Shown here: positions 2,184 to 22,473 of the stretch, in pieces
How the letters are laid out: the number at the start of each line of letters is the position of its first letter
How positions within the stretch are numbered: the first letter of the stretch is position 1
Origin: Candidatus Pacearchaeota archaeon
Lineage (GTDB): Archaea > Nanobdellota > Nanobdellia > Pacearchaeales > GW2011-AR1
Assembly: GCA_017609915.1 (NCBI GenBank)
Contig: JAFCDA010000001.1
Span: 5,033-69,032 of the forward strand
Length of the DNA stretch: 64,000 bases
Reading direction: 5' to 3'
Program-made: the position numbers and the translations under genes
The notes under the pieces: generated by a model
What the model was told of the DNA's origin: nothing
Databases searched by the model: none
Seen by the model: the letters and a program-made list of their open reading frames with translations, nothing else

Positions 2184-2192
2184 ATCTTTAAG

Positions 2193-5254: not shown

Positions 5255-5344
5255 ACAAAAATACTACAAGCTCATTATATAAAGTTTTTTATACTCCCAA
5301 CCCTTTAAAAAAGGCTTGACCTAAATTTTAAAATCATAGAAAAT

Positions 5345-6462: not shown

Positions 6463-6492
6463 TGATATATTGGGTTTTTAAGGTTTATTGTT

Positions 6493-8037
6493 TTAAACCC
6501 TATACCTAACTTTATCATACCAGACTTTAAAATCTAAAGGAAGGCTTCTATAAGTTGGTTTTAATATTCTTTCTCTTATTAAATCATAAATACTCACGAA
6601 TTTTAAAATAAATAATGTATTAGAGGGGTTTGTTAGATTTTTTTTAATTCTTTCTGGTTTAAGAAGATGGTTAATCAAAGAATTTGATATTATTCCAAAT
6701 CTTTTTTCTGTTACAACTCCCCTCATTAAATTTAAAATTAAAACTAAATACATGTTTTTTCTTTTTAATAAAATATGCGCTCCTCTGTCCCAATAATTAA
6801 GAGTAACTGCTGAATCTTTTGGAGTTTTTATTATGCCTTCATTTACAGCTCTTTCATGAAGTTTAGATCCATGAAAAAAAACTAAGTTATTAACAGATAA
6901 AAAATAAGGTTTTGGAAGCTTTTGCAATAATCTTATCATATTTATTATATCTTCTGGTTTTTCATAAGGATTGCAAGTTATGACATCATACATAACAGCT
7001 AATTTGTCCTTGTACTTGTTTAAGATTTTTGCTGCATTAATTACTTCTTTATTTGTTTGATTCCTGTGATAAACTTCTTTATTAACTCTTTCTTCTCCTT
7101 GAATTCCCATAATTATATCTGTACACCCTGCATTTACAAGAAGTTTTATTTTTTCATCTGAAACAGTATGGGGATCTGTAAGACATTTAAACCTAAGATT
7201 AACTTTTTCTTTGTATTTTTTTGTGAATTCTCTTATTTGCTCAATAGGTCTTAAAGAAAAAGTGTCATCTCTTATATCAAAATAACTTAAACTTGGAAAT
7301 TTTTCTTTTAATTTTAAAATCCCTTTAATTATATAATCCACACTATGCCATCTTACTATTTTTTTTCTTTTTCCCTTGTAAAGTTCATTTAATAAACTAT
7401 TACTACAATAATCACACCCATAAGGGCATCCTCTTCCTGTTAAGAAAAATATTGCTCCATCTAAATCTTGTTCTCTAAATCTTCTTAATCTATGATTGTC
7501 AAGAATATAATGTGTTTTTGTATCATAATCTGGAAGAGGAATAGAATCTAAATTATCTATTAAAAGTCTTACAGGGTTTTTAATTATCTTTTCCGTTTCT
7601 TTGTTTTTAATCCAAAGATTTTTTATTTTTTTAATTGATTTATTTTTTTCTATTGCATTAACTAAATCAAGAATTGTTTCTTCTCCTTCTCCAACACATA
7701 CAATATTACAATATTTAATACATTCTTTTGGTGAAATTGTTGCATGAATTCCTCCCCAAACAATTGGGATTTTTACACATGTTTTTTCTAAATATTTTAT
7801 TATCTGAATAGCTCTTGGTGCAGTTGAAACAAAAGAACTAATTCCAATTAATTCTGAATCTTTGCAAATTTGATAAAGTTGTCTTAATTCCTGTCTTTTG
7901 TAAAACTTAGAATAATCTTCACTTAGGTTCATAAAAACTAATTTAACATCATGTCCTGCTTTTTTTAAAACAGCAGAAATTGTCCTTATTCCTTGATCTG
8001 AAGGATATGTTGCTGCAGAAATTAAAGTTATTTTCAT
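6493..8037 (-). CDS. B12-binding domain radical SAM protein (class B methyltransferase-like)
   Basis: N-terminal cobalamin-binding Rossmann (KITLISAATYPSDQG...GGIHAT) followed by radical SAM CPYGCDYCS motif. Confidence 0.8.
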   Translation of the reverse strand: MKITLISAATYPSDQGIRTISAVLKKAGHDVKLVFMNLSEDYSKFYKRQELRQLYQICKDSELIGISSFVSTAPRAIQIIKYLEKTCVKIPIVWGGIHATISPKECIKYCNIVCVGEGEETILDLVNAIEKNKSIKKIKNLWIKNKETEKIIKNPVRLLIDNLDSIPLPDYDTKTHYILDNHRLRRFREQDLDGAIFFLTGRGCPYGCDYCSNSLLNELYKGKRKKIVRWHSVDYIIKGILKLKEKFPSLSYFDIRDDTFSLRPIEQIREFTKKYKEKVNLRFKCLTDPHTVSDEKIKLLVNAGCTDIIMGIQGEERVNKEVYHRNQTNKEVINAAKILNKYKDKLAVMYDVITCNPYEKPEDIINMIRLLQKLPKPYFLSVNNLVFFHGSKLHERAVNEGIIKTPKDSAVTLNYWDRGAHILLKRKNMYLVLILNLMRGVVTEKRFGIISNSLINHLLKPERIKKNLTNPSNTLFILKFVSIYDLIRERILKPTYRSLPLDFKVWYDKVRYRV

Positions 8038-8146
8038 TTTATATTGTTTATCTGGAATTTGATAAGCTCAATTTAGTTTTGAAGATGATTTGTTTAACTT
8101 AATCTTATCTTCTCCAAAGCTCTAGGTTTAATAAGATATTGATATT

Positions 8147-9307
8147 TCATTTATTGTTTTTATTGTTTATTGAGGATTCATACTCTTCCATATATCTTTT
8201 TGAAATAAGATCCCAAGCATAATCTTTAGATTTTTTAAAATTGTTTTTAGATATTTGTTTTGCTAATTTTGGATTATCTAGAATTTTTAAAATGTTTTTT
8301 TCAAGGTTTTTTATATCTCCATACTTTACTAAAAATCCATTTTCAGGCTCTTTTACCTCATATGGGACACCATTTACAGGAGATGCTACAATAGGTAAAC
8401 CAGAAGCCATTGCTTCAAATAATGTTAAAGGAAGCCCTTCTCTATAACTTGGTAAAACATAAACATCTGCTGCTTGATACATTTCTGCTATTTTTTCTTT
8501 TCCTCTAATTGCTCCAAGATATTTCATATTTTTGTGCGATTTAATTAATCTTTCTACTTCTTGTGCTTTTCCTTCATCTGGACCAACCCAAATAAAAGCT
8601 ATATCTTTTCTTTTTTTAGAAATATTAATTGCTGCTAATGCTAATTTTTCTGCTCCTTTTGTTGGATTTAATCTACCAAAAAATAAAACTAATTTTTTTT
8701 CTTTTATTTTGTGTTGTTTTTTAAAATTATTTTTCTTTACTTTTTTGTAAAGAATTTTATCTGTTCCATTTGGAATAACTTTAATCTTATTTTTGTTTTT
8801 AATATATTTATTAAGAATATCTAATTCCCAAGGAGTTATTGCTATTACTTTGTCAACTAATTTAAAAGATATTTTATTAAAAATTAGATTATTTAAAAAT
8901 AAAAATGGGCGTAAGATTAATGGGCGGAATTCTGCTCCTGTCCATGAACAATGTGTTGTATGTATATGTTTACTTTTGTTTAATTTAGAGAGTATTCCTG
9001 CAAACAAAATATAAGCATGTCCTGATACATGTGTATGGATAATATCAAATTTTCCTTTAAATCTCCAAAGTAAGGAAGGCCAAATAAACGTGCTTAAAGA
9101 TAATCTAAACCAATAAGGAAACCTATGAATATGAACTCCTTGTATAATTTCTTTTTTTAATTTTATTCTTTTGTTTTTATCAGAATCACAACAAAAAACA
9201 TGAACTTCATGCCCTTGTTTAACTTGTCTTTGAGCTAGTTCATACATTACCTGCTCAACACCTCCAAAAGTTGGTAAATAAAACATATTAATGTGAGCTA
9301 TTTTCAT
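8147..9307 (-). CDS. GT4 family glycosyltransferase
   Basis: GGVEQVMYELAQRQVKQGHEVHVF N-domain and EGLPLTLFEAMASGLPIVAS GT-B retaining signature; track ORF extends to 9517 but start at Met 9307 avoids overlap with next gene. Confidence 0.8.
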   Translation of the reverse strand: MKIAHINMFYLPTFGGVEQVMYELAQRQVKQGHEVHVFCCDSDKNKRIKLKKEIIQGVHIHRFPYWFRLSLSTFIWPSLLWRFKGKFDIIHTHVSGHAYILFAGILSKLNKSKHIHTTHCSWTGAEFRPLILRPFLFLNNLIFNKISFKLVDKVIAITPWELDILNKYIKNKNKIKVIPNGTDKILYKKVKKNNFKKQHKIKEKKLVLFFGRLNPTKGAEKLALAAINISKKRKDIAFIWVGPDEGKAQEVERLIKSHKNMKYLGAIRGKEKIAEMYQAADVYVLPSYREGLPLTLFEAMASGLPIVASPVNGVPYEVKEPENGFLVKYGDIKNLEKNILKILDNPKLAKQISKNNFKKSKDYAWDLISKRYMEEYESSINNKNNK

Positions 9308-9413
9308 GATTTTTTTGAGAAGTTGATTGTTTATAAAGTTATATTGGATATACTTAATAAATTGTTTTTTTGTTCTAGTAACATTTATATAGTTTTCCAA
9401 AGGTATTTTACTT

Positions 9414-10829
9414 ATGGCTAATAAAATAAGGAAACTCATCATTATTGGGATAGATGGGGGGACCTTTAATGTTTTAAATCCTTTATTCCAAAAAGGGTTA
9501 TTGCCTAATTTAAACAAATTTAAGAATAAACTAATACTTGAATCAACAATTCCTCCTGGAACTGCTGTTTCTTGGGCAAGTTTCTCAACAGGAAATCTAC
9601 CTGATAAAACAAATATTTATGATTTTACAATTGTTAGTGAAAATTCTTGGAAAATAAATTTTGTTAATAGGAAAATAGCTAAAGGTAAAAAATTATGGAA
9701 CTATCTTGATGAGGCAGGATTAAAAAGCTGTTTTATTAATCTTCCTTTGACTTATCCTGTTGAGGAAATAAATGGGGTTATGATTTCTGGAATTGATACA
9801 CCAAGCAAATTAAGCAATTATACTTATCCTAAAGAGATTAAAGAAGAATTAAATAAAATAGGATACGAAATAGAAGTTTCTGGTTTAAAAGAAAAATCAG
9901 AAGTAAGTGATGAAGCACTTGCAGTTTTGGATAAAAGAATAATAATTGCAAGGAAATTTTTAAAAGAAAACTTTGATTTTTTTATTGTTTTATTTAGAGG
10001 AAGTGATGTTGTTCAACATTATGCTTGGGGAGAAAATCAAGTTGAAGATGCTTACAAAAAAATAGATAAATTTATTGGAGAGGTTCAAGATTATTGTGGA
10101 AAAAATAATGCTGACTTAATGGTTATATCAGATCATGGTGAAGAAAAAGTCAATAAAGCTTTTAATATAAATTCTTGGTTAGAAAAAGAAGGATATCTTA
10201 AAACTCATATAAAGAAAAAGAATGTTCTTTCTTATCTTGGAGTTAATAGGGAAAGAATTTTCAAAATTTTAGAAAAATTACAATTACAATTTTTAGTAAG
10301 AGTTATTCCAAGAAATATTGGTAAAAAAATACCTACAAAACAAATTAATTTTGAAGAAGCAATAATTACTAAACAAATAGATTTTAATCAAACAAAAGCC
10401 ATTGCTAAACGAGCTGTTAAAACAGCACAAATTTTCATAAGTAGTGAAAAAAGAAAAGGAATTGTTAAGAAAGAGGAAATAAAAGAACTTAAACAAGAAA
10501 TTAAGAACAAATTAAAAAGATTTTTTGAAAAAGAAAAATTAGATGTTATAATTAAGACTAAAGAAGAATTATATCCAAATAGTGAAAATTTTGCTCCAGA
10601 TATTAATTTATATTTTAAAGAAAAAGGTTATGATATCACTGCTTCTTTTTCATCAAATAAGGGCTTATGGAATAATCCTCGAGAAAAAGCAACTCATAAT
10701 AGTGAAGGAATTTTATTTACAGATATAAATATAAAATCAAAATCCCAAAAAATTATTGATTTAGCACCTACAATTTTGAAATATTTTAATATAAAAAAGA
10801 AAAATTTTGATGGAGAAAGTTTAATTTAA
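9414..10829 (+). CDS. alkaline-phosphatase-superfamily phosphodiesterase / nucleotide pyrophosphatase-like protein
   Basis: IIIGIDGGTFNVL metal-site N-terminus and DHGEEKV motif typical of type I phosphodiesterase/NPP (PF01663-like) fold. Confidence 0.6.
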   Translation: MANKIRKLIIIGIDGGTFNVLNPLFQKGLLPNLNKFKNKLILESTIPPGTAVSWASFSTGNLPDKTNIYDFTIVSENSWKINFVNRKIAKGKKLWNYLDEAGLKSCFINLPLTYPVEEINGVMISGIDTPSKLSNYTYPKEIKEELNKIGYEIEVSGLKEKSEVSDEALAVLDKRIIIARKFLKENFDFFIVLFRGSDVVQHYAWGENQVEDAYKKIDKFIGEVQDYCGKNNADLMVISDHGEEKVNKAFNINSWLEKEGYLKTHIKKKNVLSYLGVNRERIFKILEKLQLQFLVRVIPRNIGKKIPTKQINFEEAIITKQIDFNQTKAIAKRAVKTAQIFISSEKRKGIVKKEEIKELKQEIKNKLKRFFEKEKLDVIIKTKEELYPNSENFAPDINLYFKEKGYDITASFSSNKGLWNNPREKATHNSEGILFTDINIKSKSQKIIDLAPTILKYFNIKKKNFDGESLI

Positions 10830-10830
10830 A

Positions 10831-11592
10831 CTAAGTATATCCTAAATCTCTTAGTCTTTGCATGATTTCTTCTCTTACTATTCCTCTTCCAGCCCTTTCA
10901 TGGGCATTTGGATCATCATTTATCTCAGTACAATGGGTACATCCCAAAGAAGTATATCCTTTAGCATAAAGGGGATTACATTTTATATCAAATTCTTTAA
11001 CATAATTTAAAACATCTTCCTGTGTCCAAAATAATAAAGGATGAATTCTAAAATGTGTATCTCTTGGTGAAACAATTGTTTCTTTTGCTCTTTCTTCATG
11101 TTCTACTCCTCTAATTCCTGCCATAAATGCTGATAATTTCAAATCTTCAATAGCTTTTTTTAAAGGAGCGATTTTATGATATCCACAACAGATTTCAGTA
11201 AAATCTGGGGTTTTCCATCCAAATTTTTCTTTTATACTTTCTAATCTATTTTCAGGAGCTTTAACTTCATGGAAATTAGTTAATCCCCATCCCTTGATAA
11301 TTTCATCAATATACTTGTAAGTTTCTTCAAATTGATGTTGAGTATTAACAAAAATTATTGGTAAATCTTTAGGGATTATTGGTAAAGCTACATGCAATAA
11401 AACAACACTATCTGTTCCACCACTAAACCCTAACCCTGTAGTAGGATATCTTTCAATAGTTTCTCTTATTATTTCTTGAGATTTTCTTATTTTTTTATGC
11501 AAAGGCAATTCTGTAAGTTTTTTAATTTCTTCACTCATTAAATCTATACATCTTTGAGTTCTATTAGCTTTTGTATATTTTTCATCTACCAT
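10831..11592 (-). CDS. PAPS/APS reductase family protein (PP-loop, CC...CxxC iron-sulfur type)
   Basis: GLGFSGGTDSVVLLHVA PP-loop, EICCGYHK and C-terminal GCTHCT cysteine pairs as in thioredoxin-dependent APS reductases. Confidence 0.65.
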   Translation of the reverse strand: MVDEKYTKANRTQRCIDLMSEEIKKLTELPLHKKIRKSQEIIRETIERYPTTGLGFSGGTDSVVLLHVALPIIPKDLPIIFVNTQHQFEETYKYIDEIIKGWGLTNFHEVKAPENRLESIKEKFGWKTPDFTEICCGYHKIAPLKKAIEDLKLSAFMAGIRGVEHEERAKETIVSPRDTHFRIHPLLFWTQEDVLNYVKEFDIKCNPLYAKGYTSLGCTHCTEINDDPNAHERAGRGIVREEIMQRLRDLGYT

Positions 11593-11665
11593 TTTTTTAT
11601 TGATTAGATTTAATTAAATATAATGACTATTTAAAGATTATTATGTTTAGATATAGATGAATCAT

Positions 11666-12874
11666 CTATTCTAAAAATTTCATAAGGTAACTATCTCCAG
11701 AATAAATATTAATAGATTCTTCAGGGTCTTTTTCTAAATCATATTCTTCTATTTTCTCATGATGGCTTGCCTTACACAAATTACAAAAATTATTTTTTGC
11801 TAAAATTAATTTTCTGTTTTTGGTTCTTACAGTTTTAATATCTTCACAAAGCCCATCAAATGAAAAAATCTTATCCCTAATTGGCTGATTAGTTTTTATT
11901 AAAGGTAAAAAAGATTTTCCATCAAATTCTTCTTGTGTTTCTAATTGAAGATAATCTAAAATACTTGGGACAATATCAATGTCTTGAACAAATTCTGTTA
12001 TTTTTTTAGATTCAAGTCCTGGAAAATGCATTACAGAGGGAATATGTATTGAATCTTCATATAATCCTGAAGAACTAAAATAAATTCCCTGCTCTGTTAA
12101 ATTTGTTCCATGATCTCCTACAATTATTAATATAGTGTCTTCCCATAAATTTTGTTCTATTAAAACCTCTTTAATCCTTTTTATTTCATTATCTATATCT
12201 TTTATTGAAGTGTCATATTTATTTATCATATCTTGGATAGTGTAAAGTTTTTTTCCTTCAATTCTCTTTTTCAAATATTCTCTCTGACTTTCATCTTTAA
12301 TATTTTCTAATGTTTTTTGAAAATCTGTTTCATTATTTTCTGATTCATATTTTGTATTTGGAAAAGGAAAATGAGTATCCCATATATGCATAAACAAGAA
12401 AAAAGACTTGTCTGTGTTTTGATTTTCTTTTATTTTAGAAATAGCTAAATCTGTCATTTCGTTTATTGGAGCAAATGGTGCTGGAGATTTTTTAAAATCA
12501 AAATTTTCTCCTTCCCCATAATAATTAAATCCTCGTTTAAACCAAAGTCCAATCCAATCTACACAAATTGTCTCATATCCTTTATTTTTCAAATATTCAG
12601 GAAACCAGAATTTTACTTTTTGAACTTTATCAATTTCTTCTTGCTTAGTATATGGGAGTTGATGAATTACTCCATGATTATTTGGATATTTTCCAGTAAA
12701 TATAGAGCTTAATGCAGGAGCAGTAGAATTTGATGCTGAAAAATAATTATCAAACCAGAGATTTTCTTTTGCAATTTCTTTTATGTTTTTATCTGTTTCC
12801 TTATGATAACCATATAAACTTAGATTTTTTCTTCTAAAAGCATCTACAAGGATGATAATTATATTCTTTTTCAT
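11666..12874 (-). CDS. sulfatase-fold (alkaline phosphatase superfamily) hydrolase/transferase lacking FGly cysteine
   Basis: IIILVDAFRR metal-binding N-terminus and GDHG motif; sulfatase signature CxPxR replaced by TAPAL (Thr nucleophile as in phosphotransferases such as EptA/LtaS). Confidence 0.6.
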   Translation of the reverse strand: MKKNIIIILVDAFRRKNLSLYGYHKETDKNIKEIAKENLWFDNYFSASNSTAPALSSIFTGKYPNNHGVIHQLPYTKQEEIDKVQKVKFWFPEYLKNKGYETICVDWIGLWFKRGFNYYGEGENFDFKKSPAPFAPINEMTDLAISKIKENQNTDKSFFLFMHIWDTHFPFPNTKYESENNETDFQKTLENIKDESQREYLKKRIEGKKLYTIQDMINKYDTSIKDIDNEIKRIKEVLIEQNLWEDTILIIVGDHGTNLTEQGIYFSSSGLYEDSIHIPSVMHFPGLESKKITEFVQDIDIVPSILDYLQLETQEEFDGKSFLPLIKTNQPIRDKIFSFDGLCEDIKTVRTKNRKLILAKNNFCNLCKASHHEKIEEYDLEKDPEESINIYSGDSYLMKFLE

Positions 12875-12922
12875 TTTACTTAATTAAATTTAATTACTGT
12901 ATTTAAAGATTTATGAGTAAAA

Positions 12923-13150
12923 CTAGTCTAAATAACCTAGGGCTTTTAATCTCTTTCTTATTGCCTCTTCTTCTTCCTTAGAAAATCCTTCTCCTTTAGT
13001 TTCTGGAGATTCAGATAATAATTGCCTTAAAATAAAGGTCACATATGCTGAAGGAGAATGCATCCCAGTTCCTTTTATCTTTTCTTTTATTTTATCTACT
13101 AATTGGGTTGGTAGAGAGATTGTACTAAATTTTGATTTTTTATTTTTCAT
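12923..13150 (-). CDS. ribbon-helix-helix (CopG/Arc-like) small protein
   Basis: 75 aa; STISLPTQLVDKIKEKI beta-strand-helix pattern of RHH; C-terminal tail RKRLKALGYLD. Confidence 0.4.
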   Translation of the reverse strand: MKNKKSKFSTISLPTQLVDKIKEKIKGTGMHSPSAYVTFILRQLLSESPETKGEGFSKEEEEAIRKRLKALGYLD

Positions 13151-13229
13151 AATTTACTTAAGAATATAGAGATTTTAAAACTTTCTTAATTAAGCATATC
13201 TTTAAAAATATGAGGTAGATTTAATTAAT

Positions 13230-13346
13230 ATGACTGAAGAAAACAATAATGAAGATAATAAAGATAAAGAAGAAGATAATGCATATACTCCTGAAGAAGA
13301 ATTAGAAGTAAAAAAAAGACTTGAGAGCTTGGGGTATTTGGATTAA
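13230..13346 (+). CDS. small acidic ORF (38 aa) ending in the same KKRLESLGYLD tail, hypothetical
   Basis: Not in ORF track (short); ATG 13230 to TAA 13346; tail matches C-terminus of neighbouring RHH protein. Confidence 0.2.
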   Translation: MTEENNNEDNKDKEEDNAYTPEEELEVKKRLESLGYLD

Positions 13347-13442
13347 ATATAACTTTCTTAGTGTCTCTAATCATAATTAGGACTTAAACTTCTCTTCTTT
13401 AAAGCATTATATTTTATAATATATAGATTAGAATTTTGGTTT

Positions 13443-15155
13443 TCACATTCTCTTTTTTAACAAATTGTCTCTGATTAATAAATAATTTCTTCTCAAAAAA
13501 TCTAATTTTTCATAATGATAAACTTCTATTTTGTATAAAAAACTTGTAATCCAAAACTGCATTCCGCATTTTCTACATGGCAACATAAATTGGTAACGAA
13601 ATTTGTTTTTAATTAAACAATTTTCATACTGAATTTTTTCATGGCAAAAAGGACATTTAACCTTAACCCTGTATCTATCTTTATTTGTTTTTTTAATTTT
13701 GAGGGGAATAACATAACGAGCATATTTTCTTCTTGCATCTACTATATCTTTTTTTAATTTCAGAATTTCATTATCTGTCATTTTATCAGTCATATTTATC
13801 CAATTAGTATGGGCTATTTTGTTTTTAATAAAAGATAATTTATCTTTAATAATTCCTTTTTTAATACAATGGTGATAAATAGCACTTCCAGGATATGGTT
13901 GAATAAATCCTATTCTAATTGAAGAATCTAAAGGAATATAACCAATGCCTTTTGTTATTTTTTTCCAATAATTAAGAGTTTTATAAGCAGTTTCTTTTGT
14001 TTCAGCAACATCTCCAAAAATAAAATTTCCTTGAATACCTATACCTACTTCTCTTGAAAGTTTTATAACATTATCAATTTGTTGAGGGGTTATTGGTTTT
14101 TTCATACTTTTAAGTACTTTTTCACTATAACTTTCAAAACCAAAACCAACAACAGTACATCCTGCATCTTTTAATGTTTTTAATAATTTTTTATCTACTC
14201 CAGCCACTACTAGTTGACAAGTCCATTTAATTTTCCAAGGTGTGTTTTTAATAAGTTTTTTTATTTTTTTACAAAACTCATATACTCTTTCTTTATTAAC
14301 TGAAAATAAATCATCATAAATTTCAATAGCATTGATTTTATATTTTTTTATTGCTATTTCAAGTTCTTTAATAACTGAATCAATTTGCCTTTCCCTATAT
14401 TTTCTTCCAATACTATGATAACAAAAAGTGCATTGAAAAGCACACCCTCTGCTGGCAAGTATTGGGTAAGACCTTGGATAATCAAATTCTCCATAGAGAA
14501 AATAAGAATTACTTTGATTTTTTAATTTTTCTTCATATCCAAATCCTTCAAAATCTGGCAAAGGCAAGGAATCTAAATCCATTATAAGCTCTCTTGGTTT
14601 TGTGAAAAAAGGTTTTTTATTTTTTGGTTTTGTGAAAAAAGGTTTTTTATTTTTTATATAACCTATTCCATTTATTTTGCTTAAGTTTCTTTTTTTTTCT
14701 AAACATTTTAATAACTCGATTATTGTTGTTTCTCCTTCACCAACTACTACAAAATCTGGGTGTAATGATTTAAGCATTAATTCTGGTTCGCTTGTTATTA
14801 ATGCTCCTCCCACAATAGTTTTTGGTTTAGAAGGATGATTTTTAGCTGCTTTTAATATTTTCTCTATTACCACATAACCTATTCCAGTATGTCCTGAACA
14901 AACAATATCATATTTCTTTTTATTTAATTGTCGAAAAACTAATTCTTCTGTTTTTCCATTTAAATGATTTAAATTTAGGCAATCTACATCATATTTTGCT
15001 TTTTTTAAAACAGCAGAAATATAACCCAATCCTAAAGGAAAATTATACTGATAATTTGTTTTATTGCTCAAATTATATCTTGGAATTACAAGCAATATTT
15101 TCATATTTTCTTTTGTATTTTTTTTAGTGTGTTTTATTAATTTTTGTTTTATCAT
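13443..15155 (-). CDS. B12-binding domain radical SAM protein with C-terminal zinc ribbon
   Basis: Cobalamin-binding N-domain, ASRGCAFQCTFCYHS radical SAM motif, C-terminal CPFCHEK...CRKC; contains in-frame 30-bp tandem duplication. Confidence 0.8.
   Translation of the reverse strand: MIKQKLIKHTKKNTKENMKILLVIPRYNLSNKTNYQYNFPLGLGYISAVLKKAKYDVDCLNLNHLNGKTEELVFRQLNKKKYDIVCSGHTGIGYVVIEKILKAAKNHPSKPKTIVGGALITSEPELMLKSLHPDFVVVGEGETTIIELLKCLEKKRNLSKINGIGYIKNKKPFFTKPKNKKPFFTKPRELIMDLDSLPLPDFEGFGYEEKLKNQSNSYFLYGEFDYPRSYPILASRGCAFQCTFCYHSIGRKYRERQIDSVIKELEIAIKKYKINAIEIYDDLFSVNKERVYEFCKKIKKLIKNTPWKIKWTCQLVVAGVDKKLLKTLKDAGCTVVGFGFESYSEKVLKSMKKPITPQQIDNVIKLSREVGIGIQGNFIFGDVAETKETAYKTLNYWKKITKGIGYIPLDSSIRIGFIQPYPGSAIYHHCIKKGIIKDKLSFIKNKIAHTNWINMTDKMTDNEILKLKKDIVDARRKYARYVIPLKIKKTNKDRYRVKVKCPFCHEKIQYENCLIKNKFRYQFMLPCRKCGMQFWITSFLYKIEVYHYEKLDFLRRNYLLIRDNLLKKRM
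14596..14655 (-). repeat. perfect 2 x 30-bp tandem duplication inside CDS (encodes KKPFFTKPKN twice)
   Basis: ggttttgtgaaaaaaggttttttatttttt repeated head-to-tail at 14596-14625 and 14626-14655. Confidence 0.9.
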
Positions 15156-15241
15156 TTTATTTAGTTTAATTTAGAATATTTAAGATTTATTAATGTATAA
15201 TCATACCTTATTGCCCCCATATTTCTAAGAATTTTACTGGT

Positions 15242-15728
15242 TCACTTTATAACTCTTAATTCAACATGAACTTGAGATACTAAACCACCAAAAAACAAAG
15301 CTAATTTTTCTCTAAGTGGTTTGAATATAAATTTTCCAATTCTTGTGGGTATTAATTCTAATTTGATTATCTCAAACTTTTTTTATTTTTTTATTTTATT
15401 TGGTCCTTCTACAAATACTTTAAATGTCGCATCTGAAAAATAATGTAAATGTTCCATATCATTAAAAGCTCCTTTACTATTATAATAGGGCACTTCAATA
15501 ATAATTACTGCATTTTGCTTACATATTCGATATAACTCATTTAATACTTTTTTGGTTTTAAATAAGATAATATTTGATTCATTAAAACATAATCATAACA
15601 ATCTGCATTTAAGGGATAAGGAAATTTATTAAAATCAAAGCTCTTGAAGATTTTTGGATTTTTTGTATATCTACATTATCCCATCCTTCTCTTATATCTG
15701 GCCCACATCCAAAATTAAGTTTTCTCAT
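15242..15728 (-). pseudogene. class I SAM-dependent methyltransferase (Methyltransf_11-like) pseudogene, two frameshifts and one in-frame stop
   Basis: Minus strand reads MRKLNFGCGPDIREGWDNVDI then continues in +1 frame (FDFNKFPYPLNADCYDYVLMNQ), then another frame (LNELYRICKQNAVIIIEVPYYNSKGAFNDMEHLHYF), stop, then in-frame KKFEIIKLELIP...; breaks lie at poly-A runs. Confidence 0.6.
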
Positions 15729-15813
15729 GATTATAATCACTTCTTATTTTAAAAATTTTTTAGAGTAAAAAGAACGCAATAATGTTTAAAAAGCTTCTTA
15801 TAAAATAAAGTAT

Positions 15814-16686
15814 ATGTTAAAAAGAATAAAAAAAAGAATAAAAAAAAGAATAAGAAAGATAATGAAAGGGTCTTTTTTACATCTAATATTTGAGTATAAA
15901 TGGTATCTTATCAATAGGGCGGCATTAAGAAGATTATTAAAAAAGAATTATAAAAAAAATTTCAAACAACTTCAACCTTCTTCAAAAGTTGCTATTCTTT
16001 TTTTAGGAACCAGGACATATGTTAATCTTTTTCCAAATTATTATAAAAATATAAAAAAATATTTTTTACCAAATATAAAAAAATATTTTTTTGTTTATAC
16101 AGACCAAGTAGATTATCCTTTTTTGTCAAAAAAAGATGTTATTGTTGTTCCTATTAAACATAGAAAATATCCTTTGCCTATGCTTTATACATTTAAATCA
16201 ATAAATAAAGCAGCTGATAAATTAAAAAAATATGACCATATAATCTGGTTTGATGCAGATATGATTGTCAATAGGGTGGTTAAAGAAGAAGAGTTTTTTT
16301 GCCATGATAAACAATTATTTGGGGTCAGACATCCAAATTTTTTAGCTAGAAAAGGAACTTTTGATAATAATCCTAAATCATTAGCTTATGTTCGACCTGA
16401 AGATAATTCTTCTATTTATTATCAAGCTTGTCTTTGGGGAGGTCAATCTAAACCTTTTCTTAAACTATTAAAAGAATTAGAAAAAAGAGTAGATATTGAC
16501 TTATCAAAGAATATTCGTTCAAGAATTTTAGATGAATCTTATTTAAATAAATATTTTATAGAAAAAAAAGATATCACACATGCATATGACCCAACCTATG
16601 CTTATCCTAAAAATCAACCTATTCCCCAACCTTTTAAAAAAAAGATTTTGCATGTTGATTTTAAAAAACATAAAATAATTAAGTGA
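15814..16686 (+). CDS. GT6 family glycosyltransferase (ABO / alpha-1,3-Gal(NAc) transferase-like), DxD type
   Basis: Colinear motifs with vertebrate ABO transferases: FFVYTDQ (HYYVFTDQ), IIWFDADM (VCVDVDM), LFGVRHPNF (LFGTLHPGF), AYVRPEDNSSIYY..LWGG (AYIPKDEGDFYYLGGFFGG), LDESYLNKY (HDESHLNKY). Confidence 0.8.
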   Translation: MLKRIKKRIKKRIRKIMKGSFLHLIFEYKWYLINRAALRRLLKKNYKKNFKQLQPSSKVAILFLGTRTYVNLFPNYYKNIKKYFLPNIKKYFFVYTDQVDYPFLSKKDVIVVPIKHRKYPLPMLYTFKSINKAADKLKKYDHIIWFDADMIVNRVVKEEEFFCHDKQLFGVRHPNFLARKGTFDNNPKSLAYVRPEDNSSIYYQACLWGGQSKPFLKLLKELEKRVDIDLSKNIRSRILDESYLNKYFIEKKDITHAYDPTYAYPKNQPIPQPFKKKILHVDFKKHKIIK

Positions 16687-16749
16687 TGTGGAATTTAATA
16701 CATATTTTAACTACATAAAAGCTTTTAAATTAAAAAGATAGTCAAAAAT

Positions 16750-17823
16750 ATGGAAGAGTATGAAAAAGAGTTTGAAAATAAAAAGATTCTTATTACTGGG
16801 GGTTTGGGTTTTATAGGAAGTAATTTAGCTCATAAATTAATTCAACTAAATCCTCAAAGAATAGTTGTTGTAGATTCTCTTATTCCAGAATGTGGAGGAA
16901 ATGAGCATAATTTAGATAAAATTAAAGAGGAAATTGATATTTTTAATGTAGATATAAGACAGACTAAAACAATGGATGCTATTATAAGATCATTAAAACC
17001 TGATTTTATATTTAATTTAGCAGGATTATTAAGTCATACAGAAAGTTTAAAAGATCCAAAAAAAGATGCAGAAATAAATGCATGGGCACAATACAATATA
17101 TTAGAACCTTGTAAAATAAATAAGAATAAAGTTAAAATAATTTATGCAGGAACCAGAGGACAATATGGAAAAGATATAAAAATAATGCCTATTACTGAGA
17201 ATTTATCTACTTTAAAACCTGCAGACCCTAATGGAATAAGTAAAAATTCAGGAGAACAAAGTTGTTTATTTTATGGTGAAAAATTTGAAAATATAAGTGT
17301 CTGTTCTTTGAGAATGACTAATACTTATGGTCCAAAACATCAAATGATTTCACCTAAACAAGGATTTTTAAATTGGTTTATAAGGTTAGCTATGGATAAT
17401 AAAGAAATTTCAGTTTATGAACCTGGAAGTCAATTAAGAGATTTTAATTATGTTGATGATGTTGTTAGAGCTTTATTAATGGCTATGGCTTCTAATAAAA
17501 CAAATAATGAGGTTTACAATCTAGGAAGTTGTTTAAATGATGGATATGAACTAAAAGAGTTATGTGGGAATATAATCTCAGTAAAAGATGTTGCAAAAAA
17601 GATAACTGAAATTTGTCATGAAGAACTTGGAGAGTCTGGCAAATTAATAATGATGCCTTATCCTGAAGAAATGAAAAAAATAGAAGTGGGAAATATTAAA
17701 ATGGACTTTACAAAATTTAATAGGGACACTGGTTGGAAGCCTTTAATTAATTTAGATGAAGGATTAAGAAAAACCATAAGATTTTACAATCAAAATAAAG
17801 AAAAATACTGGGGATTAAAATGA
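16750..17823 (+). CDS. NAD-dependent sugar-nucleotide epimerase/dehydratase (SDR family)
   Basis: KILITGGLGFIGSNLAHKL Rossmann motif, YxxxK region; 4-nt overlap with downstream aminotransferase. Confidence 0.8.
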   Translation: MEEYEKEFENKKILITGGLGFIGSNLAHKLIQLNPQRIVVVDSLIPECGGNEHNLDKIKEEIDIFNVDIRQTKTMDAIIRSLKPDFIFNLAGLLSHTESLKDPKKDAEINAWAQYNILEPCKINKNKVKIIYAGTRGQYGKDIKIMPITENLSTLKPADPNGISKNSGEQSCLFYGEKFENISVCSLRMTNTYGPKHQMISPKQGFLNWFIRLAMDNKEISVYEPGSQLRDFNYVDDVVRALLMAMASNKTNNEVYNLGSCLNDGYELKELCGNIISVKDVAKKITEICHEELGESGKLIMMPYPEEMKKIEVGNIKMDFTKFNRDTGWKPLINLDEGLRKTIRFYNQNKEKYWGLK

Positions 17824-18911
17824 TTCCTTTTGGAAATTTAAAAAAACATTATAGTTTAATAAAATCTAATATTGATAAAGCTATATCTGATGTTTTGCAA
17901 GGAGGGTGGTTTATTTTAGGAGAAACATTAAAATCATTTGAAAAAGAATTTGCAGAGTATTGTGGCAAGAAATATGGGGTTGGTGTTGGAAATGGGACAG
18001 ATGCTTTATTATTAGCATTAAAAGCGTACGGAATCAAGCAAGGTGATGAGGTGATAAGTGTTCCAAATACAGCTATTCCAACAATTTCGGCTATTGTTAG
18101 TTCTGGGGCAAAGCCTGTTTTTGTAGATGTTGGTGAAGATTATTTAATAGATGTTAATAAAATAGAGGCAGCTATAACTGAAAAAACAAAAGCAATTATG
18201 CCTGTGCATTTATATGGTCAAGTTTGTGATATGGAACCTATATTAAAAATAGCTGAAAAATATAATCTTCATGTTATAGAAGATTGTGCACAATCTCATG
18301 GAGCAGAATATAAAGAAAAAAAATCTCCTATTGGAGAAACTGGATGTTTTAGTTTTTATCCAAGTAAAAACTTAGGTGCTTTTGGAGATGCAGGAATGAT
18401 TGTGACAGATAATGAAGACTTAGCAAAAAAATTAAGAATGTTAAGAGATTATGGAAAATCAGAAAGAAATAGTGCTAAACTTCATGGATATAATAGCAGA
18501 TTAGATGATATTCAAGCAGCAATATTAAGTGTTAAATTAAAATATCTTGATATGTGGAATAATGAAAGAAGAAAAATTGCTTTTATATATGATATTTTAT
18601 TAAAAAATAATTTTAAAATCCCTATAGAAAACAAAAATAACAAACATGTTTATCATTTGTATGTTATAAAAACAGATAAAAGAGATGAATTACAAAATTT
18701 TTTGAAAAATAAAGGAATTGGAAGTGTGATCCATTACCCAATACCAATCCATTTACAACCTGCTTATGAATATTTAGGATATAAAGAAGGAGATTTTCCA
18801 AAAGCTGAGCAATATGCAAGTGAAATTCTTTCATTACCTATTTTTCCTGAATTAGAAAATGAAGAAATTCAGGAAGTTGTTAAGGTAATTAAAGAGTTTT
18901 TTGAAAATTAG
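17820..18911 (+). CDS. DegT/DnrJ/EryC1/StrS family PLP-dependent sugar aminotransferase
   Basis: GGWFILGETLKSFEKEFAEYCG..GNGTDAL and PLP-lysine region SFYPSKNLGAFGDAG. Confidence 0.85.
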   Translation: MIPFGNLKKHYSLIKSNIDKAISDVLQGGWFILGETLKSFEKEFAEYCGKKYGVGVGNGTDALLLALKAYGIKQGDEVISVPNTAIPTISAIVSSGAKPVFVDVGEDYLIDVNKIEAAITEKTKAIMPVHLYGQVCDMEPILKIAEKYNLHVIEDCAQSHGAEYKEKKSPIGETGCFSFYPSKNLGAFGDAGMIVTDNEDLAKKLRMLRDYGKSERNSAKLHGYNSRLDDIQAAILSVKLKYLDMWNNERRKIAFIYDILLKNNFKIPIENKNNKHVYHLYVIKTDKRDELQNFLKNKGIGSVIHYPIPIHLQPAYEYLGYKEGDFPKAEQYASEILSLPIFPELENEEIQEVVKVIKEFFEN

Positions 18912-19023
18912 AAGGTGAATAAACTAATATCTTATAAGTATAGGAAAGATATTCAATGAGGAGCTTAAACTTATCAGATAATAAAACTTAAGATTTATAG
19001 AGATATTTAAAATAAAATATAAA

Positions 19024-19932
19024 ATGAATGGAGAAAATTTTTTTAAAAAAAGCTTAATAAAGTCTTATAAAATAGTTAGGGATAGATTTAGTAAATATGG
19101 TTTTGGGAATTTTTATTTTGTTAGAAAAATTAATGCAACTTTTTTAAAATATGTGACGCCTAATTTAATAATAATTAAAGGACATAAAATGTTTTTAGAC
19201 CCCTCAGATTCTTTAAGGCTATCAATATATGGTAATCATGAGACAAATGAAAAAGAGATTTATAAAAAATATATTAAAAAAGGAGATGTTGTTTTAGATG
19301 TTGGAGCCAATATAGGGTATGATACTTTGATTCTTGCAAAACTTGTTGGTAAAAATGGCAGGGTTTTTGCTTTTGAACCAGGCCCGATTAATTTTCAATT
19401 ACTTGAAAAGAATATTAAAATTAATGAATATAATAATGTAACTTTAGTAAATAAAGCAGTTTCAAAAGATAATAAATCGATTAAATTATATTTAAATGAA
19501 ACTAATGGGACAGGACATAAAATAGATGATATAAGTAATTTAGGTGTTAAACTTAACAGAAAATCAATCGATATAGAGTCAATTAAATTAGATGATTTTT
19601 TAAAGAATAAAAAAATTAAAAAAATTGATTTTGTTAAAATAGATGTTGAAGGTTCAGAAAGTGAAGTAATTAAGGGAATGAATAATATTTTTAAAAACAA
19701 TAAATCTTTAAAAATGATATTAGAATTTACTCCTGGTGCACTTAAAAACTATGGAAAAGACCCTAAAAAATATTTAAAAGAATTTATTTCTAAAGGATTT
19801 AAATTATATGAGATACCAGATAAAGGTTCTTTTGATAAAGATAAAATACCAATAAATAATGATAAAGATATTCATGATTTATTAAAAAGATGGGGCAAAA
19901 GTGGAACAAATCTGTTTTGTATAAGGGATTGA
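19024..19932 (+). CDS. FkbM family methyltransferase
   Basis: VLDVGANIGYDTLILAKLVGKNGRVFAFEPGPINFQLL motif of FkbM-type MTases. Confidence 0.75.
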   Translation: MNGENFFKKSLIKSYKIVRDRFSKYGFGNFYFVRKINATFLKYVTPNLIIIKGHKMFLDPSDSLRLSIYGNHETNEKEIYKKYIKKGDVVLDVGANIGYDTLILAKLVGKNGRVFAFEPGPINFQLLEKNIKINEYNNVTLVNKAVSKDNKSIKLYLNETNGTGHKIDDISNLGVKLNRKSIDIESIKLDDFLKNKKIKKIDFVKIDVEGSESEVIKGMNNIFKNNKSLKMILEFTPGALKNYGKDPKKYLKEFISKGFKLYEIPDKGSFDKDKIPINNDKDIHDLLKRWGKSGTNLFCIRD

Positions 19933-20001
19933 GATGTATAAACGAAAAACATATATTGCTCCTAAGATAAATTTTTAAACCATTATATTTACTAACTAAT
20001 C

Positions 20002-20973
20002 ATGAAAAAAAAGGAAATTCCTGTTTCATTGGTTATGCTTACTTTTGAGATAGATAAAACTGAACCAGCAATTAGAAATGCTCTTGAACAAGATTATCCT
20101 AATAAAGAAATAATTGTTGTAAATGACAATCCAAAATTAAAAATTCCTGATTCTATACTTAAATTAGAAAAACAACGTAAAATTAAAATTGTAAATAATG
20201 TAAAAAATCTTGGTATGGCAGGAAGTTTAAATGCAGGAATCAAGGCTTCAAAAACTAATACAATATTATTTACTTGTCATGATTATTTTTTTGAAAGTAA
20301 TCAATGGATTAGACATATTGTAGAAAAACTTTATTCTGATAAAAAACTAGGAACTATTGGTTCTGTTGTTAGATTGCCTATAGAAGAATGGAAAAATTAT
20401 AGTTTCTTAAACAAACTTTTTACATTTAGGCATATGCTTAAACCATCACGTAATTTACATAGTTGTTATAAAAGAGAGGTATTTAATAAATTAGGATTAT
20501 TTGATTCAAAAAATTTTAAGCGTGGTGGAGAAGATGGAGATTTTTATTCTAAGGTTATAAAAGCCGGGTATAAAACAGGGTGTATTGAAGATAGCCTAAT
20601 CCATAAACATTATAATAAAGATGATAGTTTATTAAAAATACTTAGAAAAGAATATGAGTATGGAAGATCTCATGGAGCACGTAAAAGAAAAGATGGTCTT
20701 TTTTCAAGACTGGGTTTATTTGATTTTGAAATTCGTATTTTACTTATACTAGGATTTATAATGGGTTTATTTATTCATCCTATAATAAGTTTTCTTTATT
20801 TTTTGCCTTTCTTTTTTGTAGCTTTATTTAAGTGCATTAAAGCATATCCTCAAACAAAATGGATTCCTGGATTAATTCTTTCTCCTTTTGCAGGAGTACT
20901 TATTTTATTAATCCAAACTATTGGGGCAACAAAAGAATATTTAGTCCTTCCTAAAACTAAAAGCAAAAAATAA
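20002..20973 (+). CDS. GT2 family glycosyltransferase with C-terminal membrane helices
   Basis: VSLVMLTFEIDKTEPAIRNALEQDYPNKEIIVVNDNP GT-A N-terminus; two C-terminal TM helices. Confidence 0.7.
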   Translation: MKKKEIPVSLVMLTFEIDKTEPAIRNALEQDYPNKEIIVVNDNPKLKIPDSILKLEKQRKIKIVNNVKNLGMAGSLNAGIKASKTNTILFTCHDYFFESNQWIRHIVEKLYSDKKLGTIGSVVRLPIEEWKNYSFLNKLFTFRHMLKPSRNLHSCYKREVFNKLGLFDSKNFKRGGEDGDFYSKVIKAGYKTGCIEDSLIHKHYNKDDSLLKILRKEYEYGRSHGARKRKDGLFSRLGLFDFEIRILLILGFIMGLFIHPIISFLYFLPFFFVALFKCIKAYPQTKWIPGLILSPFAGVLILLIQTIGATKEYLVLPKTKSKK

Positions 20974-21051
20974 AAGTGTTAAAATTATCTAGATCCTAGA
21001 TATAGATTTCACAACAATAAATCTTTTAAAGGGTTTAAACAAACTTAATCT

Positions 21052-22473
21052 ATGAAAAAAGTGATATTAATGTATCCTAATTGTAGGTGGAAAAAAGGGT
21101 TTGAAAATAAAACCATATGGAACCTTCATCCTTATAATCTTTGTTTACTTTCTGCAATGATAGAACAAGATTATGAAACTAAAATAGTAGATACTAATAT
21201 TGATGATATATCTAAAGAAGATTTTGTAAAGATTATAGAAGAATATAAACCAGATATAGTTGGAATTTCAGTTCTTACAAATGAATATTTAGATTCTGGT
21301 TTAATTGCTGCAGAAATAGTTAAATCAATAAATTCTGAAATAAAAACAGTTATAGGAGGGGTTGCAACTTTTGATCCTGAATCTATAATTAAAAATGAAA
21401 ACATTGATTATGTTGTAGTGGGTGAAGGAGAATTTACTTTTAAAAAATTATGTAATCATATTTTTAGTGATGGAGATTTGCCATCTAAAGGCCTTGTTTT
21501 TAAAAAAGATGGAGAAATAATAAATCTTGGTCGTTCAGATTTTATAGAAGATTTAGATAGTCTTCCTTTTCCATCATATGATAAAGTTGATTATTTAAAA
21601 TATGCTAATTCAATTCAAAGAGAAAGTGTAGATAGCCCAAGAGAAATGCCTTATGCAAACATAATAACATCAAGAGGCTGTCCTTATAATTGTTGTTTTT
21701 GCCAGGCTGGAAAAATTTCTGGTAAAAAACCAAGGTTTCGTAGTGTAGAAAATATTCTTAAGGAAATTAGTTGGTTAAAAGAAAAATATGGAATAAAAGC
21801 TCTTATTTTTGATGATGATAATCTTCTTGTTGATAAAGAAAGAGCTAAAAATTTATTTAGGGGAATGATTGATAGAGGATTTAATCTAAAATGGAATGCT
21901 ATTGCTATGGCTGCATTTAAATTAGACGAAGAAATGATAGATTTAATGAAAAAAAGTGGATGTCAATATGTAGATATTGCTATTGAATCAGGTGTTGAAA
22001 GAGTACTTCATGATATTATTCATAAACCTTTAAATTTAGAACATGCAAGAGAAGTTCGAGATTTATTAAAAAAATATGAGATTGATTTTGCTGCAAATTT
22101 TATTATGGGATTTCCAGGAGAAACCTGGGATGAAATTAGAAAAACAATTAAATTTGCAGAAGAATTTGATGCAGATTATACTAAAATATTTATTGCAACA
22201 CCTTTACCAAACACAGAATTATATGAAGTTGCCAGAGAAAAAGGTTATTTAAAAGAAAATTTTAGTTTTGATAAACACTTATGGACTGATGGATGGATAG
22301 AAACTGAAGAATTTCGTCCAGAAGATCTAAAAATCTTAAGGGCATATGAATGGGATAGGATAAATTTCTCAAGCCCAGAAAAAATAAAAAAAATTATCTC
22401 TATGATGGACATTAGTGTAGAAAGACTTAATGAGATAAGAAAAAATACACGCAAGAGGGCAAACCCTCAATAA
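21052..22473 (+). CDS. B12-binding domain radical SAM protein
   Basis: Cobalamin-binding N-domain (VILMYPN...VGISVLT..GG) then SRGCPYNCCFCQAG radical SAM motif. Confidence 0.8.
   Translation: MKKVILMYPNCRWKKGFENKTIWNLHPYNLCLLSAMIEQDYETKIVDTNIDDISKEDFVKIIEEYKPDIVGISVLTNEYLDSGLIAAEIVKSINSEIKTVIGGVATFDPESIIKNENIDYVVVGEGEFTFKKLCNHIFSDGDLPSKGLVFKKDGEIINLGRSDFIEDLDSLPFPSYDKVDYLKYANSIQRESVDSPREMPYANIITSRGCPYNCCFCQAGKISGKKPRFRSVENILKEISWLKEKYGIKALIFDDDNLLVDKERAKNLFRGMIDRGFNLKWNAIAMAAFKLDEEMIDLMKKSGCQYVDIAIESGVERVLHDIIHKPLNLEHAREVRDLLKKYEIDFAANFIMGFPGETWDEIRKTIKFAEEFDADYTKIFIATPLPNTELYEVAREKGYLKENFSFDKHLWTDGWIETEEFRPEDLKILRAYEWDRINFSSPEKIKKIISMMDISVERLNEIRKNTRKRANPQ

Follow-up and report, generated by a model that had tools for sequence, protein, structure and literature searches.

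Does the presence of three B12-binding-domain radical S-adenosylmethionine (SAM) enzymes in one archaeal glycan locus mean that the glycan carries multiply C-methylated sugars? The question is raised by a stretch of 64,000 nucleotides from a Candidatus Pacearchaeota archaeon (assembly GCA_017609915.1, contig JAFCDA010000001.1, positions 5,033 to 69,032 of the forward strand), hereafter called the window; all coordinates below are positions in it. A first-pass annotation described three of its open reading frames (ORFs) as paralogous class B enzymes embedded in a glycan locus and expected them to C-methylate unactivated carbons. We refer to these ORFs as P1, P2 and P3:

6493..8037, minus strand: P1, B12-binding-domain radical SAM enzyme of 514 amino acids (aa), PF02310 and PF04055, CxxxCxxC
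13443..15155, minus strand: P2, B12-binding-domain radical SAM enzyme of 570 aa as ORF, PF02310 and PF04055, CxxxCxxC
21052..22473, plus strand: P3, B12-binding-domain radical SAM enzyme of 473 aa, PF02310 and PF04055, CxxxCxxC

We favour, with moderate confidence, the reading that P1–P3 are distinct members of the superfamily, each recruited to a different sub-module of one surface-glycan island in a DPANN archaeon. Their most likely role, judged from domain content and gene context, is sugar tailoring: each enzyme would form a 5'-deoxyadenosyl radical and, after hydrogen abstraction at an unactivated carbon of a sugar intermediate, would alkylate or rearrange it.

The three ORFs are present at precisely the coordinates of the first-pass annotation, which had assigned to each a cobalamin-binding N-terminal domain and a CxxxCxxC radical SAM core. 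Profile scores and motifs agree with this assignment. The Pfam B12-binding domain PF02310 (gathering cut-off 32.1 bits) scores 58.8 bits in P1, 56.4 in P2 and 75.7 in P3, and the Radical_SAM domain PF04055 (cut-off 29.5 bits) scores 59.3, 69.7 and 98.5 bits, respectively. The annotation had named N-terminal domains lacking the B12-binding motif in a profile search as its own refutation; that search was run, and with PF02310 above its cut-off in all three proteins the assignment stands. Each protein has a single CxxxCxxC motif (CPYGCDYC at residue 204 of P1, CAFQCTFC at 238 of P2 and CPYNCCFC at 210 of P3), and the motif is kept in 73 of 74 aligned family members. The classical cobalamin motif DxHxxG is found in none of the three proteins and in none of the 74 aligned family members; this is no surprise, as cobalamin sits base-off and has no histidine ligand in the B12-radical SAM enzymes solved so far (PMC12931638). 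Domains and motifs thus place P1, P2 and P3 in the B12-binding-domain radical SAM superfamily (broad class B). The AlphaFold2 models of P1 and P3 agree in fold, matching QCMT, TsrM, CysS, OxsB, TokK and AprD4 with E-values of 1e-14 to 2e-26, and only B12-radical SAM structures stand at the top of the two match lists. Actual binding of a cobamide by P1–P3 is plausible but putative, being predicted from the domain: AprD4 and ArsL carry the same domain without binding B12 (PMC12931638, a 2026 review).

The term 'paralogous' holds at the level of the superfamily, but not in the sense of recent paralogs. Pairwise identities between P1, P2 and P3 are 27%, 27% and 28% (BLASTP E-values 5e-23, 3e-19 and 6e-34), which rules out a recent local duplication. 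We assembled about 170 related loci for comparison. The 268 B12-radical SAM-like ORFs in all fetched loci, archaeal and bacterial, form 54 clusters at 40% identity, and P1, P2 and P3 each fall in a different cluster. By this measure they represent three anciently diverged members of the superfamily, each with its own orthologous family. P1-centred archaeal loci of at least 20 kb contain one to four B12-radical SAM ORFs (mean 2.5, 19 loci), so three copies are typical for the clade and not special.

The glycan setting described by the annotation is borne out. P1–P3 lie among sugar-nucleotide and glycosyltransferase genes in an island of at least 31 kb, which runs from the start of the window to a Wzx-type flippase and in which almost all genes are glycan-related by Pfam and NCBIfam. 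Synteny is kept over dozens of related loci; it rules out chance co-location with glycan genes and makes a glycan-tailoring role for P1–P3 reasonable. The glycosyltransferases (GTs) of the island comprise two GT2, one GT4, one GT6, two GT9 and one PMT_2 GT-C enzyme. Besides P1–P3, the island has three more radical SAM genes (23134-24774, 24939-25997 and 28225-29136). The G+C content is about 25-30% throughout the window (genome about 27%), and the named close homologs of P1–P3 are mostly labelled Nanoarchaeota, Pacearchaeota or 'archaeon'.

The module of P1 is laid out in an invariable order, GT4-P1-(QueC)-GT2-(NDT-GT9)-PMT_2, where NDT stands for a nucleoside 2-deoxyribosyltransferase-like gene. 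The same order is seen in the window (493-9517) and in the related locus L005. A metagenome scan gave 80 P1 loci, and gene frequencies were counted in the 32 of them that reach at least 12 kb:

493..2100, minus strand: PMT_2/ArnT-like GT-C membrane glycosyltransferase, terminal gene of the P1 module (PF13231; 26 of 32 loci)
2561..3676, minus strand: GT9 glycosyltransferase (PF01075; 14 of 32 loci)
3673..4080, minus strand: nucleoside 2-deoxyribosyltransferase-like protein (PF05014; 14 of 32 loci)
4134..5054, minus strand: GT2 glycosyltransferase, the near-constant partner of P1 (Pfam; 30 of 32 loci)
5345..6037, plus strand: QueC-like PP-loop ATPase within the module (PF06508; TIGR00364 at 121 bits, below its cut-off of 150; 16 of 32 loci)
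8147..9517, minus strand: GT4 glycosyltransferase, conserved upstream neighbour of P1 (Pfam; 25 of 32 loci)

Among the best 120 of 1751 P1 homologs, identity to P1 is 68-92% and the hosts, where named, are Nanoarchaeota or Pacearchaeota; on these matches the P1 family is specific to Nanoarchaeota. A pair of GT2 and PMT_2/ArnT-type GT-C enzymes recalls pathways in which polyprenyl phosphate carries a sugar that is then transferred on the outer side of the cell. With P1 added, the route would be ArnC/ArnT-like or Gtr-like: the sugar would be placed on polyprenyl phosphate, modified, flipped and transferred outside, and P1 would tailor the polyprenyl-phosphate-linked sugar or its nucleotide precursor. 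The QueC-like ATPase and the nucleoside 2-deoxyribosyltransferase-like protein are surprising in a glycan pathway, yet they are syntenic in 14-16 of the 32 loci. Between the GT9 and PMT_2 genes lies a very hydrophobic ORF of about 100 aa (2290-2601, minus strand), which might encode a small flippase-like membrane protein.

P2 would tailor another unit of the same glycan. Its best 120 listed homologs are 50-86% identical, and all named ones are archaeal (Nanoarchaeota, Pacearchaeota or 'archaeon'), which marks P2 as a Nanoarchaeota family as far as these matches go. The C-terminal part carries a CxxC...CxxC motif, the cysteines of which (C500, C503, C526 and C529; window 13443-13700) are invariant across the family and could form a zinc ribbon or an auxiliary cluster site. 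The true start is probably Met18 (coordinate 15104), 17 codons past the start of the ORF, because homologs begin with MKILLIIP. An exact tandem duplication of 30 bp (14594-14655, 2.1 copies, 100% match) adds an in-frame KNKKPFFTKP repeat to the linker that joins B12 domain and radical SAM core; homologs are without it. Seven distinct P2 loci are listed: a flippase adjoins P2 in three, and in the others P2 stands beside P3 or the GT4-P1 pair. In the window P2 is bordered by the following genes:

9414..12874: phosphodiesterase-family gene (plus strand), 3'-phosphoadenosine 5'-phosphosulfate (PAPS)-reductase-like gene (minus strand) and sulfatase-family gene (minus strand), adjoining P2 (Pfam, NCBIfam)
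15814..16686, plus strand: GT6-family glycosyltransferase, divergent from P2 (PF03414)

The three genes at 9414-12874 hint at sulfate or phospho-substituent chemistry in the glycan. A few related loci, such as L124, also have sulfatase-like and PAPS-reductase-like genes.

P3 is set apart by its host range and by its partners, several of which are predicted thiamine pyrophosphate (TPP)-binding or SPASM-domain proteins. Its best 120 listed homologs are 50-78% identical. A scan with one genome per species gave 231 relatives; identity is 41-70% for the 80 that were listed, and their hosts are Nanoarchaeota, Omnitrophota, Nitrospirota, Desulfovibrionaceae, Lachnospiraceae, Arcobacter, Sulfurimonas, Pelagibacteraceae and others. 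Judging by these relatives, the P3 family is common to Archaea and many anaerobic Bacteria. It is also found in the isolate genomes of Pseudodesulfovibrio karagichevae 9FUS, Arcobacter sp. YIC-464 and Lachnospiraceae bacterium 47-T17. The part of the island around P3 includes these genes, E1 denoting the first component of pyruvate dehydrogenase (PDH), SDR a short-chain dehydrogenase/reductase and NDP nucleoside diphosphate:

16750..17823, plus strand: SDR resembling NDP-hexose 4,6-dehydratase (PF01370/PF16363; best NCBIfam model dTDP-glucose 4,6-dehydratase at 137 bits, below cut-off)
17820..18911, plus strand: DegT-family sugar aminotransferase (PF01041, 403 bits; PseC-like and ArnB-like NCBIfam models below their cut-offs)
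19024..19932, plus strand: FkbM-family SAM-dependent methyltransferase (PF05050; TIGR01444 at 113 bits, above its cut-off)
20002..20973, plus strand: GT2 glycosyltransferase directly upstream of P3 (PF00535)
22484..23134, plus strand: short PDH-E1-alpha-like TPP-binding subunit of 216 aa (PF00676 E1_dh, 71 bits)
23134..24774, plus strand: E1-beta-like Transket_pyr domain (residues 2-171; 23134-23650) fused to a radical SAM/SPASM protein, 'rSPASM1' (PF02779, PF04055 and PF13186)
24939..25997, plus strand: radical SAM/SPASM protein 'rSPASM2' of 352 aa (Pfam)
26068..27015, plus strand: GT9 (heptosyltransferase-family), tied to the P3 cassette in archaea (PF01075; 61-65% identical orthologs in L010, L013, L016 and L129)
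27067..28032, plus strand: PHP-domain phosphoesterase (PF02811)
28225..29136, plus strand: third radical SAM protein without a B12 domain, 303 aa, with a weak SPASM match (Pfam; 56-68% identical orthologs in L010, L013, L016 and L129)
29224..30840, minus strand: Wzx-type polysaccharide flippase, right-hand end of the island (PF01943)
31557-34182: SecD/SecF genes after the flippase (Pfam)

Synteny around P3 was assessed in 65 loci of at least 12 kb, with orthologs counted from 35% identity for rSPASM2 and from 55% for rSPASM1. The E1-alpha/E1-beta pair is present in 21 of the 65, an rSPASM2 ortholog in 27 and an rSPASM1 ortholog in 11; 36 of the loci have at least one of the three, and 27 have another B12-radical SAM gene besides P3. 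By comparison, only one of the 32 P1-centred loci has the TPP pair. SDR/epimerase genes lie within 6 kb of P3 orthologs in 20 of the 65 loci. The Desulfovibrionaceae locus L023 reads 4,6-dehydratase, NTP_transferase, DegT, rSPASM2, E1-alpha, E1-beta, rSPASM1, P3, an unknown gene and a B12-radical SAM protein of 764 aa, and is by its gene content a complete NDP-sugar tailoring operon. The same partners accompany heptose genes (SIS, PfkB, CTP_transf_like) and nonulosonate genes (NeuB, Epimerase_2) in the archaeal L001 and the Omnitrophota locus L008. The rSPASM1 part is 59-72% identical where found. In archaeal and bacterial loci alike it stands as a gene of its own, adjacent to E1-beta in archaeal L010, L016 and L129 and in bacterial L023, L027, L035 and L037, and its fusion to E1-beta in the window speaks for a functional coupling of TPP enzyme and radical SAM enzyme. 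The closest solved relatives of rSPASM2 by sequence are BlsE, MoaA, DesII, BtrN and viperin, among which BlsE, DesII and BtrN act on sugars or nucleosides.

In known systems, for example Plm8/Plm9 and the avilamycin (eurekanate) pathway, paired PDH-E1 alpha and beta subunits attach a two-carbon branch from pyruvate to NDP-4-keto-deoxyhexoses (PMC4802897). The hallmark of such a branching system, an E1_dh and Transket_pyr pair near NDP-4-keto-sugar enzymes, is present in the window (22484-23134 and 23134-23650, with the SDR and DegT genes at 16750-18911), the activity being predicted; the full set with NTP_transferase is seen in L023. P3 would then act in an NDP-4-keto-6-deoxy(amino)hexose pathway, in which the PDH-E1-like enzyme would add a two-carbon branch from pyruvate, the two SPASM enzymes and P3 would remodel the branched product, and the GT9 would transfer it. 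Tentatively, and as a possibility rather than an expectation, we propose that the P3 module encodes an undescribed nucleotide-sugar pathway of DPANN archaea and many anaerobic bacteria. Its components would be a B12-radical SAM enzyme, a PDH-E1-like TPP enzyme of minimal size and two to three SPASM enzymes. The pathway would join the TPP-dependent making of C-C bonds with radical (cobamide-dependent) remodelling, yielding a new branched or alkylated sugar.

The right-hand border of the island invites one comparison. The window contains the archaeal gene string DUF655-S13-S4-S11-RpoD, and a marine Pacearchaeota locus, L090 (GCA_002689985.1), has a glycan island at the same position, between SecDF and the S13-S4-S11-RpoD operon. 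What that island contains is different: a P2-family gene, a transketolase-like pair, another radical SAM gene, genes of the NUDIX and inositol-phosphatase types and one more B12-radical SAM gene. The chromosomal site thus seems to be fixed while its content varies.

Several observations weigh against the reading of P1–P3 as tailoring enzymes of distinct glycan sub-modules. The neighbourhood of P2 varies between loci. About 45% of P3 loci are without the TPP and SPASM partners, so P3 is not strictly dependent on them, and no NTP_transferase gene was found in the island of the window. None of P1, P2 and P3 reaches the cut-off of a curated NCBIfam family. No cobalamin transport or salvage genes were recognised by Pfam in the 64-kb window; genes for the biosynthesis of cofactors and vitamins, including cobalamin, are found mainly in Altiarchaeota, Diapherotrites and Micrarchaeota, and other DPANN archaea are presumed to be externally supplied (PMC8407392). 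Since most DPANN archaea are thought to depend in this way on external sources, and since the window has no cobalamin gene, the use of cobalamin by P1–P3 is putative. Any chemistry beyond domain content and synteny is likewise inferred.

Which chemistry the three enzymes might perform was judged from their placement among characterised families by NCBIfam model scores and PDB matches. The best NCBIfam scores are 84 bits for P1 (MJ_1487), 148 for P2 (HpnJ) and, for P3, 194 (HpnJ) and 193 (the P-methylase Sden_1168), against cut-offs of 251-578 bits. No methyltransferase family reaches its cut-off of 282-750 bits (PhpK, Sden_1168, KedN5, HpnR, TsrM, QCMT, BzaD and the C-methyltransferases of RiPPs, peptides of ribosomal origin modified after translation); the highest methylase-model scores are 64 bits for P1 (ApyD), 108 for P2 (PhpK, ApyD, QCMT) and 193 for P3 (Sden_1168). 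The AprD4 family NF033070 (cut-off 500 bits) scores 24, 71 and 101 bits with P1, P2 and P3, and HpnJ TIGR03471 (cut-off 577.6 bits) scores 69, 148 and 194, both falling short; no hopanoid genes occur in the window. An NCBIfam search of the radical SAM and TPP partners also reached no cut-off. Among solved structures, AprD4 is the best sequence match of P3 (78 bits, or 106 with the P3 family profile) and of P2 (59 bits). It is also the best fold match of the P3 model (predicted local distance difference test, pLDDT, 91.7; E-value 2e-26, template modelling (TM) score 0.71-0.75). The P1 model (pLDDT 88.8) matches QCMT/MgmA, TsrM, CysS, AprD4, OxsB and TokK almost equally (E-values 4e-18 to 5e-14, TM about 0.6, about 15% identity). 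A single-sequence search of P1 against the PDB gave no match, and its family profile gave marginal matches to OxsB and TokK only (E about 1e-3). Fold searches cannot separate function here, as methylases, OxsB and AprD4 score alike.

That all three are methylcobalamin-dependent class B C-methyltransferases, giving several C-methylated sugars in the glycan, as the first-pass annotation held, is in our view rather unlikely. C-methylation is the commonest known chemistry of the superfamily, and all three proteins have the architecture of a B12 domain joined to a radical SAM core; three different families, however, need not share a chemistry, and an FkbM methyltransferase is already present in the locus. 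The N-terminal domain of P3 aligns with those of the cobalamin binders TokK, CysS and OxsB, while the nearest solved structure for P2 and P3 is that of the non-methylating AprD4. Most characterised members of the superfamily are methyltransferases, every functionally characterised group includes C-methyltransferases, and GenK and GenD1 are listed as Csp3-methyltransferases; yet non-methylating members are without features that set them apart from alkylating ones, so that sequence does not tell methylases from other members (PMC12931638). The top profiles, moreover, are the uncharacterised MJ_1487 family and HpnJ, a non-methylase listed among members with other or unknown chemistry (PMC12931638). 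With no curated methylase cut-off reached and AprD4 as the nearest solved relative of P2 and P3, methylation of unactivated carbons goes beyond the data as a claim for P1–P3. The step from three genes to multiply C-methylated sugars fares no better: one to four such genes from many subfamilies are usual in this clade, and the step is a prior, not a result, because the cut-offs are unreached and methylases cannot be told apart by sequence (PMC12931638). The statistics of the superfamily by themselves make it better than even that at least one of P1–P3 is a methylase, not assignable to any single one. AprD4-like dehydration or HpnJ-like rearrangement is a live alternative, for P3 above all.

In its strong form this alternative holds that one or more of the three, above all P3, is a cobalamin-independent enzyme of the AprD4 type, performing a sugar 1,2-diol dehydration or deoxygenation with a neighbouring SDR reducing the keto product, and that the 'B12 domain' is a structural Rossmann remnant. 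AprD4 itself dehydrates a sugar 1,2-diol and binds no cobalamin (PMC12931638). We consider this improbable. The sequence match of P3 to AprD4, its best in the PDB by sequence and fold, is confined to the radical SAM core (residues 166-428), whereas cobalamin use by P3 stays plausible because its N-terminal domain aligns with TokK, CysS and OxsB. Its strong Pfam B12-binding score points the same way, while the cobalamin-free domains of AprD4 and ArsL (PMC12931638) give a precedent for a remnant, which would suit a cofactor-poor DPANN cell and the lack of cobalamin genes in the window. SDR/epimerase genes flank P3 orthologs in L001 and L008 and could supply the reductase, yet the AprD4 NCBIfam model falls far short of its cut-off on P3 and scores below the HpnJ, Sden_1168, BchE and PhpK models.

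It is very unlikely that P1–P3 instead modify a lipid carrier or membrane lipids (compare the glycerol dialkyl glycerol tetraether ring synthases and methylases, and HpnP/HpnR) or act on proteins or peptides, with glycan genes as no more than chance neighbours, for the tight and specific synteny with glycosyltransferases, the association of P3 with NDP-sugar enzymes in both domains of life, the lack of lipid-biosynthesis genes in the island and lipid-model scores far under the cut-offs stand against the prominence of B12-radical SAM enzymes in archaeal lipid modification (bioRxiv 10.1101/2025.10.20.683597 and PMC11214058), the unusual conservation of P1, as expected of a housekeeping function, its weak score with the lipid-biosynthesis model TIGR04072 (82 bits) and its position beside a GT-C enzyme using lipid-linked donors.

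The answer to the opening question is therefore a divided one: the observation of three such enzymes in a glycan locus is correct at the level of annotation and ordinary for the clade, while the mechanistic claim built on it exceeds the evidence. Within a known superfamily P1–P3 form new and so far uncharacterised subfamilies, and their context is plausible and typical of the clade. In public databases they go under generic names ('radical SAM protein', 'B12-binding domain-containing radical SAM protein') or under a misleading one ('anaerobic Mg-protoporphyrin IX monomethyl ester cyclase'). We found no publications discussing these genes, and nothing specific in the literature on B12-radical SAM enzymes in DPANN archaea or in polysaccharide loci, or on sugar pathways combining TPP and radical SAM enzymes. 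The B12-dependent radical SAM superfamily holds more than 220,000 sequences. Reactions are known for only a few dozen of them, and of those few hardly any belong to cell-surface glycan pathways. The P1, P2 and P3 loci point to three well-conserved, tractable families. The most valuable lead is the cross-domain cassette of P3 with TPP and SPASM partners, whose defined partner set makes it a realistic target for new sugar chemistry. The locus also raises the question of whether cofactor-poor DPANN cells need an imported cobamide to build their surface glycans. If the proposed P3 pathway is real, genome-reduced Nanoarchaeota would spend scavenged cobamide mainly on cell-surface decoration, with one to four such enzymes per glycan island, and the supply of vitamin B12 would be an unseen factor in their surface chemistry and in their interaction with hosts.

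Elsewhere in the window, a three-gene group (34540-38736) encodes a DUF4956 protein, a CotH-kinase/beta-helix protein of 918 aa and a VTC-domain protein. A lone 5S rRNA gene (39781-39895) adjoins tRNA-Leu(CAA), and the window has no 16S or 23S rRNA gene. The ATP-binding cassette (ABC)/MacB genes at 40.6-44.8 kb were considered as candidates for BtuCD and rejected, as they resemble an efflux-type system. A possible second glycan-related group (52600-56923) consists of a DUF2334 gene, three ORFs without a family match and an EryCIII-like GT1 glycosyltransferase. A PD-(D/E)XK (Cas4-like) nuclease (51374-52210) and a tyrosine integrase (58332-59216) might together be signs of an element that has integrated into the right-hand part of the window.

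Among known systems, the gentamicin enzymes GenK and GenD1, which act on aminoglycoside sugars, set a precedent for class B C-methylation of sugars. They are likened to P1–P3 by description only, and belong to antibiotic pathways of actinomycetes. The class B methyltransferases QCMT/MgmA (9CCB), TsrM (6WTE), TokK (7KDX) and CysS (9N1B) are the top fold matches of P1 and rank high for P3, and their architecture, like the absence of DxHxxG, fits a base-off, His-off mode of cobalamin binding; the identity, however, is 14-20% at TM of about 0.6-0.7, and their substrates are peptides, tryptophan or carbapenams, not sugars. HpnJ, a hopanoid-associated B12-radical SAM enzyme proposed to contract a glucosamine ring to a cyclitol ether and presumed to have a lipid-linked amino sugar as substrate, gives the highest NCBIfam score with both P2 and P3. 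Both are below its cut-off and are not members, and an archaeal host without hopanoid genes in the window separates them further. AprD4 of the apramycin pathway (PDB 6FD2), the best solved match described above, shares with these proteins the layout of a Rossmann N-terminal domain and a radical SAM barrel, and acts on a sugar. It differs in its identity of about 20%, in doing without cobalamin while the N-terminal domains of P1–P3 score well on the B12-binding profile, and in serving antibiotic biosynthesis and not a cell-surface glycan. ArnC/ArnT and the Gtr-type three-component glycosylation systems resemble the P1 module, where GT2 and PMT_2 (ArnT-family) GT-C genes flank P1 in conserved order and a small hydrophobic ORF lies near; the GT2 of the window matches no curated polyprenyl-phosphate transferase model, and the analogy does not extend to homology of the flippase. 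The paulomycin Plm8/Plm9 pair and the avilamycin system are not known to have radical SAM partners, and the subunits of the window are truncated by comparison, at 216 aa for alpha and about 175 aa for a beta part fused to a radical SAM/SPASM protein. The resemblance lies in the E1_dh and Transket_pyr domains themselves, which adjoin P3 in the company of a 4,6-dehydratase-like SDR and an aminotransferase.

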